Below, in pieces: positions 51,145-58,096 of a stretch of DNA of 64,000 nt. The translations under genes were made by a program, and so were the position numbers. This DNA is from Octopus vulgaris (taxonomy: Eukaryota). Positions within the stretch are counted from its first letter, which is position 1. Each line of letters opens with the position of its first letter. Under the pieces are notes generated by a model. That model ran no database searches. It was not told the origin of the DNA and was given only the letters and a program-made list of their open reading frames with translations. The stretch covers positions 114,266,001 through 114,330,000 of the forward strand of contig OX597819.1 in the NCBI GenBank assembly GCA_951406725.2. The letters are read 5' to 3'.

Positions 51145-51367
51145 TTACTACCCACAAGGGGCTAAACATAGAGGGGACAAACAAGGACAGACAAGCGGAT
51201 TGAGTCGATTACATCGACCCCAGTGCGTAACTGGTACTTAATTTATCGACCCCGAAGGATGAAAGGCAAAGTCGACCTCGGCAGAATTTGAACTCAGAAC
51301 GTAGCGGCAAAGGAAACACGGCTACGGATTTCGCCCGGCGTGCTAACGTTTCTGCCAGCTTGCCGCC
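51145..51367 (-). mobile_element. tRNA-derived SINE, family B
   Basis: Reverse full-length copy abutting the Penelope fragment. Confidence 0.85.
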
Positions 51368-51392
51368 TAAATATACTCCTAAATATAATGTA

Positions 51393-52105
51393 ACCTTTTT
51401 CTTGATGTCTTCTCTGAAGTCGTGTTCGAAGACTTTCCCTATTTCATCATATAGTTTGTTCTCCAGGAAACCCATCACCAGGTTGGCATATGAAGGTGCG
51501 AATTTTGTCCCCATAGCCGTGCCTTTTATCTGTCGGTATGTCTTGTTGTTGAATGAGAATGTATTTTCTTCGAGTATTAGTTGGATGGCTTGGGTGATAA
51601 AGTTTGTCTTGAAGCGTTCGTCTATAAGTTCTCTGTATTTTTCTATTGATTGTTTTATAGCTTCTAGACCTAGTGTGTGTGGTATGTTTGTGTTTAGATT
51701 TGTGACATCAAAGCTTGCAAGTATGGTGTTTTTCGGGACTGTATTTGGAATGTGTGTGAGGAAGTCTATGTCATCCCTTATGTAGCTTGGTATCTGTGGG
51801 CATAAAGGTTTGAGGAGTATATCTATGAAGTGGCTTAGTTGTTGTGTTGGTGCCTGGGGTCCTGCCACTATTGGTCTCATTGTGAGGTCTGCAGGCCTTT
51901 GTATTCTTATATAGTGGTTCCTCTGTTCCTTTATGGCTCTCTGTATTTCAGAGCTTTTATGAATTTTAGGTAACCCATAAAAATTGCTTTCTTTGGTTCG
52001 TGAGTTGCATAGATAGTCTTTCTCCTTATCTGTAAAGGAGTCCTGGTATTCATTGACTAAAGTTCTAATTTCTTTTATTGTTGCTTTCTCCGGTGGTGTT
52101 GGTTC
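51393..52105 (-). mobile_element. Penelope-like element reverse transcriptase fragment
   Basis: FYGLPKIHK, MRPIVAG, SYIRDD, ILASFDVTNLNTNIP and QIKGTAMGTKFAPSYANLVMG are PLE RT motifs; truncated before the catalytic DD motif. Confidence 0.92.
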
Positions 52106-52889
52106 CTCTTTACATTGAAGAGACTTGGTCGTTGACAGGAGCCTCATAAGTTAACGCAGTAAACCATTTCATACGAGGCAACTAAATTCTGACCCCACGT
52201 TGTTGGCTTGTCACCAGTAACCGATTTTCCTGTTGAAGCCTACAGTAAAATTACCTTGTTGGGGAGGGGTTAAGCCAATTTTTTAAAACTTTTTTTTTTA
52301 ATTTTCATGCTGCAGTTTGCCGTAGCTATTCAAAGTAAACACAAGTGAATTGTCGCCTGTAGTGGTCTACTTTGAAAAAAAAATGTTTTTCAATACTTTT
52401 AATTGTTTTGTAACGGAAAAAAAAACGCAATTGTCTTTAAAATAATATACACCGTATATCGTTGAAAAATATTTCCTAAACTTCAGTAGGGGCTCGCTAT
52501 TAACTTAGTTTTTGCAGTGTTGCGCCAATCAGCTCATTTGCATACGCAAGTCGCTGTAGGATCGACTACCTACGACTGGCTAGCTCGTCTGCGCGTGTGC
52601 GCAAACCGGGTCCAGTCTACGCGACTAGTACCTAAAAGTATAATATTAAGGGGCATTCATTTGCCAATATTAGAACAAGAATATCTTTTTCCTAACTCTT
52701 AAAATCACTGGATATAATAATCCCAGATTGCAAAATAAATTTCCAGTTTTTGGCGCCGAAATGAGTTTCATTTTTGTGTGGAGAGAGAGAGAGAGAGAAA
52801 GTGAGTGAGACAAGGAGAGAGAGAGAAAGAAAGAAAGAGAGAGTGAGTGGGTGACGAGGTTTACCCAAATTTTGAATGATGATATATGA

Positions 52890-53278
52890 TCTTTATATAT
52901 AAAAGTAAGGTTGTGTGTCTGTCTCCTACGATTTAGATTCCTAACTACTCCCACATTTTGCGGTGCAGTTTAACCAAAACCGGGTATCTTATAGTCGTGA
53001 TTCATATCGAGCCCTTCTGGGTATTAGCGCGCGTCTACGATGAGCCTACGATTTAAAAAAATTTACCATCAATTTTTCCCATTTTTAATGCATTTTTGGC
53101 ATATATAAGGGAAGTAACTCTCTAAAAATTTATTAAATCTCAGAACATAAAAAGCTACAGTAACACGCCCCTTTTGTGGTTAGCCATATTGAGATGGCTA
53201 TTATACTTTACATCTCTAAAAATGCTTATATAGTTATTTCCCTTTACAAACCCGAGCAACGCCGGGCGATACTGCTAG
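52890..53278 (+). mobile_element. Non-autonomous Helitron (same family as 49449)
   Basis: A|TC .. cccgagcaacgccggg hairpin .. CTAG|T; carries about 80 bp missing from the first copy. Confidence 0.8.
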
Positions 53279-53794
53279 TTATATATATAATTCTATATTG
53301 TTACACCATTCTTTCTCTCTCTCTCTCTCTCATTATATATCATCATCATTCAAAGTTTGGGTAAACCTCGCACCCACTCACTCACTCTCTCTTTGTCTCA
53401 CTCATGCTTTCTCACTTCTCCCTCCCTCTCTCTTTGTCTCACTCTCTCTCTCACTCCACCCTCCCTCTCCTCCTTTCTCTCCACACAAAAATAAAACTCA
53501 TTATTATTGTTATTTTTGTTTATTTTATTTTACTTTATTATTTTAACTTACTTCCCCTACATGTTAGTTTCCTAACATTTGGTCTCTCTGATGAAGCCTT
53601 GGGGCTCAACCATTGTCCAATGTTTGGTCAACCTTTGTGATGTCCCTCTATATCACTGGCGTGATGTGGAAAACTTAGAAGATTGGGCAAGCCCATAGCT
53701 GTAACAGTTTAGTATTTGTACACTCATTTATTATTATTCGTTTTTTTTTTATTTATCTATTTATTTACTTCCTTCGTAATAAGTTAATAAATAT

Positions 53795-54770
<976 letters not shown>

Positions 54771-55120
54771 AAGAAGAAGAAGAATTCATTTACTTATTTA
54801 TTTGATTATTTCATTCGTTTACTTGGATCACTTATACATATGACTGCAATCAATTAATAAATAAATATAATTGAATGTTTACAGGCTGATGTTTATTGAT
54901 TGTTTATCCTCTCCATTTTCTTATTTGCCTTATAAATCCTGGGTAAATTTCTGTTTAACCCCCACGTACACCTAATATTCAACTGCGATATTGCCCCTGC
55001 ATTAGTAAGCACTTGGATATAAATACGTAGGTATACATCCAGTAGTATACTGAATATTTACTATCCCTTAGATGGTTGCTTAACCTCTAACTGATACAAA
55101 CATGTATGTATGTATGTATG

Positions 55121-55206
<86 letters not shown>

Positions 55207-55214
<8 letters not shown>

Positions 55215-56112
55215 CAACAATTGAGGGTAAAATTAATTAATTAATCAATTTCACCAAGTATTCAGTATGCAAAGGGACCATTTAAGGCGAATTCAAATTA
55301 TTACATTATATAAAAGGGCTTAGTAAAATAAATTACTTTGCCGCATACTGAACTCATTAGAAATAGCAGCTAAAAAAACTTTTTTAAAACTATTTCCAAT
55401 ACTTAAAGAAAATCTCTCTCATATAGTGTTTGCTCAATTCAACTCACGAAAGTATGGGGGTAGAGACATTAAAAAATCAAATGCAAAGGTTATTTGAGAA
55501 CGTACGTTTCAAGATTAGTCAAACTCGACACTTCTATCATCAGCTCAGAACTCTCTGGTTTGGATTTGAAAACACTGAAAGTGGGAGCATACCCTTTCGG
55601 CTTCCCATCGCTTCTGAAGATCCACTCGAAACTAACAGTGCCAGCAAATTCAAATATGCAAGCGAAGAATTTCTGCTCTCCCCTTTCCACCAGCGTGGGT
55701 TAAAATCAGCAAACACCATGCTTTTTTTCGGTAAAATCCGAGGCATTAAATAGAGAGAGATGAATTATAATTTCAACAATTGAGGGTAAAATTAATTAAT
55801 TAATCAATTTCACCAAGTATTCAGTATGCAAAGGGACCATTTAAGGCGAATTCAAATTATTACATTATATAAAAGGGCTTAGTAAAATAAATTACTTTGC
55901 CGCATACTGAACTCATTAGAAATAGCAGCTAAAAAAACTTTTTTAAAACTATTTCCAATACTTAAAGAAAATCTCTCTCATATAGTGTTTGCTCAATTCA
56001 ACTCACGAAAGTATGGGGGTAGAGACATTAAAAAATCAAATGCAAAGGTTATTTGAGAACGTACGTTTCAAGATTAGTCAAACTCGACACTTCTATTAGT
56101 CAAACTCGACAC

Positions 56113-56117
<5 letters not shown>
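55207..56117 (-). mobile_element. Partial tandem (1.6 units, 559-bp period) hammerhead-bearing element, retrozyme/Penelope pLTR-like
   Basis: 55207-55536 is repeated at 55766-56095; (TA)n on both sides; contains a hammerhead core. Confidence 0.75.
55495..55547 (-). ncRNA. Minimal type-I hammerhead ribozyme (predicted)
   Basis: UGAG-CUGAUGA-[UAGAAGUGUCGAGUUUGACUAAUCUU]-GAAAC-GUAC-GUU-CUCA: intact core, stem I UGAG/CUCA, palindromic loop III. Confidence 0.7.
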
Positions 56118-56195
<78 letters not shown>

Positions 56196-56271
56196 TGTAT
56201 GTATGTATATCGCCATGATAGATCGTTAGCCACTACACACATTTTTTTCTCTCCTTGTTTTTTCTGTGTCC

Positions 56272-56307
56272 CTTTCTGTAGAAGAGCGTAGGCTCGAAAC
56301 GTAAAAG
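56272..56307 (+). ncRNA. Variant minimal hammerhead-like motif in a (TA)n-flanked element (56210-56400)
   Basis: CUUU-CUGUAGA-A-GAGC-GUAG-GCUC-GAAAC-GU-A-AAAG; the core has A6U. Confidence 0.45.
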
Positions 56308-56397
56308 ACTTTTTCTATTCCTGAGCGTTATACTAATACATCTGTTTGTTTTGTACACCACCTGTCTTCGTCTTTTGTTTTTTTTTTCGTAAACTCT

Positions 56398-56468
<71 letters not shown>

Positions 56469-56534
56469 ATTGACTAATTTGTCTACACGCTAGGCCACTA
56501 GTAGTATAAATTTCGAAAATCTTTATTACCCTGA

Positions 56535-57508
56535 TAAAGCCCTGCAAAGGTTCATCAACTGTTTTGAGCAAGCATGTAGCGACTTTGGCTTAGTTATCAG
56601 CCTCAAGAAGACCAACATCATGGATCAAGCTACATCGGACATCCCAAACATACATATTGGAGACCACAGACTACAGGAGGTGGAACAGTTTACCTATCTT
56701 GCTCTACCGTCACCTACAACCTATCCCCTGATGCCGAGCTCAACATACGCATTGGCAAGGCTGCTGCTGTGATGGCCAAACTCTCCAAACGGGCATGGGA
56801 CAACAACAAGCTGACCAAGACCACAAAAATGAAGATTTACCAGGCATGTGTACTTAGCATGGAAGTGAGACTTGGACGCCGTACACACGCCAAGAGCGTC
56901 GCCTAAATATCTTTCACCTGCGCTGCCTCCGGAAAATCCCTGGCATCAAATGGCAGAATCATGTCACCAACAAAGATGTCCTCAAGCAAGCAGGAATACC
57001 AAGCATGATTGCACGCCTCACACAAAGACGTATGAGATGGCTTGGACATGTTAGCCGTATGGAAGATGGCAGAATCCCCAAGGACATACTCTACGGAGAG
57101 CTTGCTAGAGGCACTAGGTCTGTGGGAAGACCGTTCTTACGATACAAGGATGTTTGCAAAAGGGACATGAAGGCCTGTGGCATCAATATTAACAACTGGG
57201 AAGCAGTTGCCAGCAACCATGCAGATTGGCGACGTACCGTAAAAGAGGGAACACAAAGGAGTGACAGAGGGAGAGAGGAGAAATGAAAAGACAAGAAAAG
57301 ACGTCAACAAGAAACTATGACATTACAACCAGCCAGGCAAAGTCTTCGCTACATTTGCGGCACCTGCCAAAGGGAGTGTTTGTCCAAGATAGGACTACAC
57401 ATCCACAACAGGAAATGTATTAGGACATGAAATGTAAAAGCCGGACTAGATTATTTTATGCGCAACTCCATTATCTCCCGAGACAAAAAGGATGCCAACA
57501 ACAACAAC
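56535..57508 (+). mobile_element. RTE-clade LINE 3' part with (CAA)n tail
   Basis: FGLVISLKKTNIM, FTYL, RRMRWLGHVSRMEDGRIPKDILYGEL..GRPFLRYKDVCKRD. Confidence 0.9.
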
Positions 57509-57542
<34 letters not shown>

Positions 57543-58096
57543 GAGTGAGCGAGCAGAGCATGCCATCAAAGTGACACTGGGGTAAAATATACGAAGCCCA
57601 GTATACCCATCATGACTACCTGTCTGATAAGGGTACACCAGGCACATGCATCACAACCATATGTGCGCGACATGGTGATCTCATATCAAGATAAACAGCA
57701 CATAACCTTGCAGGTGGAGCCCAGTTAGAATTTTCTTCAGATCGAGTAACCCATCCCGCTCAAAAGGTCCCTGAATAAGGGTTGTTTAAGGACGTTGAAC
57801 GAAACACCCATGTTTCCAGAGGTGAATTATTCAAACCCCAAAGAATCCTACTCAACACATGGCTATGATGCTCCCCCACTACTTCTGCTCGTGATCAGAG
57901 ATGCACATATCGTCAGCCACTAAGGGACATGCTCAACTGGTTATGGTCAAACAACTGACAAGCAAATCTGTGGTATTGAGCAGAATATTTGCTGTAGCCC
58001 ATCTTTTATACCAAGACAAAACAATGTACATGATAACACTTCCAATCAGTTAAGATCAGAAGCCATGAGAGCCACTGCCTGGTACTGCATCAGGGC

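Follow-up and report, generated by a model that had tools for sequence, protein, structure and literature searches.

Metazoan retrozymes have been argued to derive from the pseudo-LTRs of Penelope-like elements (PLEs) (bioRxiv 10.64898/2026.07.22.740005), and the mobility of animal retrozymes has so far been inferred from their co-occurrence with such elements. In Xenopus, one of nine tested retrozyme dimers cleaved, as reported in the same survey. PLE insertions are marked by partial tandems, an inverted 5' copy, a one-sided tail of 30–40 bp and (TA)n targets (PMC8557442; PMC3846280). The purified PLE protein of the anole, a predicted dimer, is described as cutting and extending both strands from two internal start sites, one at either edge of the tail, and as not needing hammerhead cleavage (PMC11167929). 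Here, we describe the full Penelope insertion footprint on a protein-free RNA, and offer exact coordinates for its two start sites and for a covarying candidate binding fold.

The window analysed is a stretch of 64,000 nucleotides of Octopus vulgaris (GenBank assembly GCA_951406725.2, contig OX597819.1, positions 114,266,001–114,330,000, forward strand). We read the locus listed in Table 1, with a probability of about 0.85, as one copy, truncated at its 5' end, of a tandem repeat that codes for no protein. On this reading the repeat carries a conserved hammerhead motif, is scattered over (TA)n sites with two fixed 3' ends and is likely a non-LTR retrozyme that relies for its copying in trans on a Penelope-like RT-endonuclease, probably of the Neptune type. 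Monomer positions (q) equal 55771 minus the window coordinate, the monomer being 55212–55770 read on the minus strand. The direct repeat of about 330 bp at a distance of 559 bp, set in (TA)n, from which the original prediction started, is exact over 331 bp (55207–55537 = 55766–56096, offset 559), and (TA)n adjoins the copy at both ends. The local 22-bp duplication was likewise confirmed at the right end, where a 24-nt stretch occurs for the third time (56095–56118), 22 bp past its second copy; a short jump-back of the RT before joining (TA)n would be a likely source. The upstream unit begins at q234 and hence lacks CUGAUGA, so that this truncated repeat does hold only half a hammerhead, as had been stated. 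The window copy, one full unit plus q234–559, is an ordinary truncated member of its family. As a 1.6-unit, 5'-truncated tandem without the inverted arm carried by most family copies it is also atypical, and with neither an upstream core nor that arm it is probably a dead-end product.

Table 1. Features of the locus in window coordinates; q, monomer position
Feature	Coordinates	Strand	Remarks
Whole insertion, 1.6 tandem units, 5'-truncated, 3' end at left	55207..56118	-	
Complete 559-nt monomer	55212..55770	-	full-length matches at 95–99% identity on many contigs, in head-to-tail arrays
Upstream partial unit, q234–559, identical to downstream unit	55771..56096	-	
22-bp repeat of q234–255 at 5' end	56097..56118	-	
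Full type I hammerhead motif	55495..55547	-	predicted cut 55499/55498, after GUU
Half hammerhead of upstream unit, substrate side only, without CUGAUGA	56054..56096	-	equivalent cut site 56058/56057
Covarying 3' RNA module, candidate RT-binding element	55226..55352	-	second copy 55785–55911
Inner start site, UAUA-rich, q459–466	55305..55312	-	adjoins inverted-arm ends (q463–480) of other copies
Outer start site, q559 to q4 of next unit	55207..55212	-	microhomology to TA target
Left target microsatellite, (ATGT)n then (TA)n	55103..55210	no strand	
Right target microsatellite, (TA)n then (TATG)n	56116..56208	no strand	
RT region, family A	51209..52150	-	one of the loci of the three young Neptune-like families (A, B and E), with L174, L178 and L293

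Other repeats lie nearby. A second short repeat in the same microsatellite (56209–56402, plus strand) contains a hammerhead-like core, CUGUAGA, with a 4-bp helix II, and copies resembling it are present in L042 (about 230–416) and L297, also ending in (TA)n. Positions 54140–54383 and 54499–54742 form a near-exact 244-bp duplication with 359-bp spacing and (AAT)n tails, and plus-strand frames at 56494–57286 resemble what we take to be the C-terminus of a LINE RT.

The locus belongs to a dispersed family. A search with the monomer gave at least 190 matches with 40 of 1,457 candidates scored, many of them in head-to-tail arrays, and young copies are 95–99% identical. Exact patterns, whose counts are lower bounds, matched at least 777 3' junctions with TA and at least 598 intact ribozyme cores genome-wide (reversed-pattern controls, 0 in both cases). 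The longest array fetched comprises 15 full units, and cores recur at unit spacing in the arrays, in line with the proposed non-autonomous, hammerhead-bearing tandem family with complete multimers elsewhere. The direct repeat is thus a dispersed family member and not an artefact, and we regard the young retrozyme family as real. ORFs of at least 70 aa inside the unit are limited to 108, 76 and 74 aa, copies differ by indels, and the ORF list of the unit contains no RT plus GIY-YIG frame; judged from its sequence, the 559-nt unit is protein-free. Copies starting at q221 were considered as a distinct parent subfamily and rejected, since the q221 pattern has one match only and these copies are an indel variant of the same family.

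The single full hammerhead predicted on the minus strand at 55547–55495 parses as type I, with a CUGANGA/GAAA/NUH core and three helices, open at helix I, and its predicted cut coincides with the one first proposed. It consists of helix I (UGAG/CUCA), the core CUGAUGA, a U.U at the base of helix II followed by AGA/UCU and GUC/GAC, then GAAA, a palindromic helix III and the triplet GUU. When at least 4, 3 and 2 bp were demanded in helices I, II and III, the strict-core motif was found in 0 of 500 shuffled monomers on either strand; the bare CUGANGA..GAAA pattern has 11 matches in the window vs 4.7 expected. A CUGAAGA..GAAA match at 55614–55631 (plus strand) was rejected, as it is without a helix II on inspection and most copies differ there from the window at two bases. 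Considered in isolation, the window copy makes a weak case. An Rfam scan of 53000–58000 gave no hammerhead match at E ≤ 10, for which the combination of a long helix II and a short helix I may be the reason. The 81-nt ribozyme region folds no better than its shuffles (z 0.44), its minimum free energy structure is not a hammerhead, and the motif is absent from one of the 13 regions parsed for structure (L258).

The base of helix II, usually a G-C pair, is U.U in the 559-nt family and A.A, C.A, A-U or G.U in its relatives, with G-C in the 592-nt sister. The caveat originally attached to this closing pair is real in that the motif does carry U.U, and its weight is eased by the axolotl hammerhead HHR_Amex2, for which a U.U mismatch at the same place is described together with 22% cleavage as a monomer and much better cleavage as a dimer (PMC7229834). 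The monomeric hammerhead fold is predicted at -1.4 kcal/mol and the duplex of the 10-nt palindrome at -11.6; such a weak monomer fold with a strong palindrome duplex would fit cleavage as a dimer, which has been described for the hammerheads of PLEs (PMC4209133) and of amphibians (PMC7229834). In some older subfamilies helix III is a 3-bp stem that is not palindromic, and these could act as monomers.

Conservation of CUGAUGA/GAAAC in other copies, also foreseen, was borne out. Among about 135–142 young copies variation stays within 2.2% at every core position, but other stretches of the unit are equally invariant, a pattern that could be explained by youth. Older subfamilies are more informative: in copies of 77–100% identity the core is kept, with few exceptions, down to 77%, position 7 varying between U, A and C. 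Across 20 haplotypes, 99.6% of 240 cells are paired, double changes occur in 3 of 12 pairs and the covariation score was reached by 0 of 500 shuffles (9 of 500 for an earlier set of 25 haplotypes), values of conservation and covariation that are inflated because the haplotypes are related and their selection used a pattern that includes the core. Across the sister families, covariation is seen in helices I and II, for which the original prediction had proposed such a test. Helix I is replaced altogether in the sister families (6 bp in both), and their triplet is GUC or GUA, both of which also occur in older subfamilies.

The anatomy of the insertions was taken from the first 90 of the 777 junction matches in genome order. 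An inverted arm is present at the 5' side in 60 of them and, leaving aside four cut off by the locus edge, ends at q463–480 in all 56 complete cases, 29 times at q469 and never at q559, about 90 nt short of the main end. The far, left-hand flank is TA-rich in 80 of the 85 insertions with a visible flank, and UAUA-type microhomologies lie at both end positions. Among the 35 best-scoring insertions, which were picked independently of the junction pattern, almost every two-armed case pairs a long end with a short one in the same way. The marks of Penelope-like insertions, i.e. a partial tandem with an inverted 5' copy, a tail at one end and a microsatellite target, are thus all found, with a tail of about 90 nt in the 559-nt family in place of 30–40 bp. 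In the window copy the inner start site is not used as an end. Further upstream, 5' ends cluster at q315–335 (26 of 149; window 55436–55456), likely an RT pause site, and to a lesser extent near q346 and q423. Primary arms have a median length of 278 nt. In one chimeric insertion (L042:911–1395), q307 is joined directly to part of a different repeat in inverted orientation, which suggests shared machinery or a template switch; that other repeat has a hammerhead of its own (helix I CCAC/GUGG, triplet GUA) and is also present in L097.

The tail lies in a predicted RNA fold. The structure predicted from an alignment of fifteen 3' ends consists of a long helix (q419–428 with q501–510), two hairpins (q429–456 and q516–545) and a small stem. 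In that same alignment, from which the structure itself was predicted, 97.6% of cells are paired and double changes occur in 5 of 31 pairs, including AU:7/GC:7 and CG:8/UA:7. The inner start site would sit in the loop of the long helix and the outer one just past the last hairpin, and we consider the fold a candidate RT-binding signal. A motif common to the 559-nt family and its sisters has 7,243 exact matches. Divergent matches beside some copies led to a tandem family of 592–593 nt, a family of about 566 nt and subfamilies with a period of 545–566 nt; sister retrozymes at L220, L258 and L339 have units of about 592, 566 and 545 nt. Copies of the 592-nt sister, which has a 70-nt domain II and the triplet GUC, are 98–100% identical, and the short-end matches of the sisters stop about 100 nt before the long end.

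On the retrozyme reading, intact arrays would be transcribed in the minus-strand sense, and the RT would recognise the 3' module by its fold. It would nick each strand of the (TA)n target, and priming would rely on UAUA microhomology, with one DNA end at q559–563 and the other at q459–466. Both cDNAs would be made from one RNA molecule, or from the RNA of one locus, and joined head to head. The hammerhead would work best as a dimer formed through the 10-nt palindrome, and its cleavage could free a linear or circular RNA of 559 nt. The template used by the RT is continuous through the cut site. By analogy, we infer that the two-strand, two-start chemistry described for the anole PLE protein (PMC11167929) applies here, with a 90-nt tail. 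The proposal that a Penelope RT mobilises the family stands as far as the insertion features go (inverted arms, one-sided tail, (TA)n), and falls where the nearby RT fragment was meant to point to the partner.

That fragment (51393–52105) belongs to a young family, A, with an intact RT plus GIY-YIG frame of 775 aa. Two further young families were found in the same genome: B, which is 57% identical to A, and E, with 784 aa. All three are very young, have intact RT plus GIY-YIG frames of 775–784 aa and are potential partners; their nuclease is preceded by a zinc-finger linker, which points to Neptune as this type is described in PMC8557442. They insert in (TA)n, with two ends about 26–38 nt apart vs about 90 in the retrozyme. 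DNA similarity to the monomer was absent from the 43 loci of the search with the window RT (mostly two young families) and from the family E loci, and among 20 motif-variant loci there was no autonomous element with the 3' module. Family A loci thus share no DNA similarity with the monomer and their 3' ends lie about 30 nt apart, not 90, and the idea that the fragment marks the partner was not supported. None of the families A, B and E carries the 3' module joined to an intact ORF, and each was therefore rejected as the established partner, as was a decayed ORF at L208 with its relatives, for the same reason; the module-bearing copy beside the decayed PLE ORF at L208 is better read as a neighbouring truncated sister retrozyme. 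A weak lead is that family E ends in a U-rich ACCCU run, like the last hairpin of the retrozymes. The protein searches scored 150 of 9,510 and 150 of 17,030 candidates, a small share, and a fourth RT family may therefore exist. Two of the three families carry variant hammerhead cores: the non-canonical cores CCGAAGA (family B, L174:5140–5195) and UUGAAAA (family E, 3' region of L293) were seen with intact helices. Families A and B also have an extra overlapping upstream frame of 454–557 aa that has no Pfam match and is unusual for PLEs.

The arrays inform the question of whether the template is a circle or a multimer, and their evidence is mixed and does not favour the circle usually assumed. 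Among the 35 best-scoring insertions, a sample biased to young and long ones, substitutions separate pairs from one arm by 0.80% (289 pairs) and pairs from opposite arms by 0.64% (105 pairs), against 3.33% for pairs from different insertions (7,607 pairs), in line with one haplotype per insertion. The cut site is crossed by 44 of the 90 primary arms, and no pile-up of 5' ends is seen there, 3 of 149 lying at q268–278, about what a uniform spread would give. Cleaved linear monomers, which would pile up 5' ends at the cut site, are therefore rejected as the usual template, and the template runs through this site.

A template consisting strictly of one monomeric circle is a possible but somewhat doubtful alternative; here the hammerhead would free the 559-nt RNA, a host ligase would close it and two RT subunits would roll from the two start sites. 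Such a circle would explain why arrays are homogeneous though the 35 insertions fall in 16 haplotype groups, why arrays can be 15 full units long despite the short median primary arm, and why there is no break at the cut site. The unit-length RNA is also compact, folding far better than its shuffles (z -6.85) with the ribozyme sequestered and not formed in the predicted structure. Moreover, among the 55 arm pairs that are complete and simple (5 of the 60 were set aside), the arm from the inner start has the longer reach 22 times and the shorter reach 10 times (p 0.05 for 22 vs 10), with 23 ties, as if one RT trailed the other. The circle is harder to reconcile with the variants in 10 long arrays, where 23 minority variants are common to several units vs 78 singletons, and with the sharing of a variant on both arms by the units flanking the centre in four of eight two-armed arrays, in three of which it spans at least two adjacent units of an arm. 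These centre-mirrored variants argue against a simple monomer circle, which could yield them only if units were converted or duplicated afterwards. They could stem from a mixed multimeric RNA whose reading stops at a common end, from fold-back copying, from subsequent conversion or from an error in polishing. A master array, which would be revealed by ordered variants common to different arrays, was considered and rejected, as such sharing amounts to three single-site recurrences among the 10 arrays. In one array (L035) the variants follow an ABAB pattern, pointing to a two-unit block duplicated after insertion. Overall, an uncut multimer, or a multimer with later duplication and conversion at the DNA level, is slightly ahead of a pure monomer circle.

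More speculative, and improbable as it stands, is the idea of a self-standing lineage of RNA parasites that would not be a trimmed pseudo-LTR, comprising at least three sister families with units of 545–593 nt, more than 7,000 motif copies and its own covarying 3' fold. This fold would mimic, by shape and not by sequence, the two-start signal of Neptune-type proteins and pack the 90–100-nt tail such that both target strands are primed by a dimeric RT working on a single multimeric RNA, with the ribozyme shifted between monomer-competent and dimer-only forms.

A single priming event for both arms seems quite unlikely. In such a fold-back scheme, the 3' end of the cDNA from the outer site would self-prime and be copied back to the inner UAUA site, as self-priming has been proposed for Penelope inversions in rotifers (PMC3846280). 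The two arms do stop at the same monomer position, within 10 nt, in 24 of 60 pairs (shuffle mean 3.9, maximum 13 in 10,000), several of these shared stops lie at 4-nt palindromes, and the mirroring of variants about the array centre would follow as well. Against this, in those 22 of 55 cases the inverted arm holds sequence beyond the reach of the primary arm, up to thousands of bases in large arrays. Six primary arms also extend no farther than 125 nt and end around the inner start site, as would be the case in twin priming, and the PLE protein extends both strands in vitro (PMC11167929). Finally, a satellite or inactive relic amplified at the DNA level, with the hammerhead as a non-functional remnant of a PLE pseudo-LTR, is highly improbable: duplications as in L035, the equal invariance of other unit parts in young copies and the poor in vitro cleavage described for minimal PLE hammerheads (PMC4209133) speak for it, whereas dispersed, 5'-truncated, TA-targeted insertions with fixed 3' ends mark retrotransposition and, across families that align only in part, helices I, II and III change but stay paired around a retained core.

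Returning to the retrozyme reading, the family files as a metazoan non-LTR retrozyme on genomic criteria, a known class, and is a variant within it by its long folded tail and the lack of a homologous parent among the elements compared. A description of the 559-nt family was not found among the literature listed on retrozymes, octopus or cephalopod Penelope elements and Neptune twin priming, and supplements or repeat databases may catalogue it. Like the metazoan non-LTR retrozymes described in PMC7229834 and bioRxiv 10.64898/2026.07.22.740005, it consists of non-coding tandem units, each with a type I hammerhead, is dispersed as monomers to multimers, is low in G+C and co-occurs with PLEs; its 559-nt unit falls within the 51–972 bp range of the latter, 2026 survey. 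With axolotl HHR_Amex2 (PMC7229834) it shares, besides the U.U, a short helix III. It stands apart from retrozymes as described in these sources by having insertions with two arms, a pair of fixed 3' ends, a (TA)n target and a conserved 3' fold. Also, no homologous PLE pseudo-LTR was seen here, whereas 24 of 57 Xenopus families match known elements, nearly all of them PLEs, and the predicted sequestration of the ribozyme is unusual for metazoan retrozymes according to the same survey. Plant LTR retrozymes, in contrast, have type III hammerheads in their LTRs and 4-bp target duplications, unlike the type I topology and multi-unit arrays of the octopus family.

The minimal hammerheads of PLEs (PMC4209133) resemble the present motif in their 4-bp helix I, extended helix II and palindromic helix III suited to dimers. 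They are described with a G-C pair where helix II begins and with one additional 5' base, in contrast to the symmetric U.U, A.A or C.A mismatch, the conserved 3x3 internal loop in helix II and, in some older subfamilies, the non-palindromic helix III found here. Endonuclease-bearing PLEs such as Neptune, Poseidon and Naiad (PMC8557442, PMC11167929, PMC3846280) have in common with the family the (TA)n target, partial tandems, a 5'-truncated copy in inverted orientation, a tail confined to one end and a hammerhead that lies upstream of the 3' end, and differ from it in that the 559-nt unit has no RT or endonuclease gene. The tail measures about 90 nt, and about 100 in two sister families, vs the 30–40 nt described for PLEs and 26–38 nt in families A, B and E. 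What is new here is this tail of about three times the usual length, placed inside a covarying fold that is common to the sister families.
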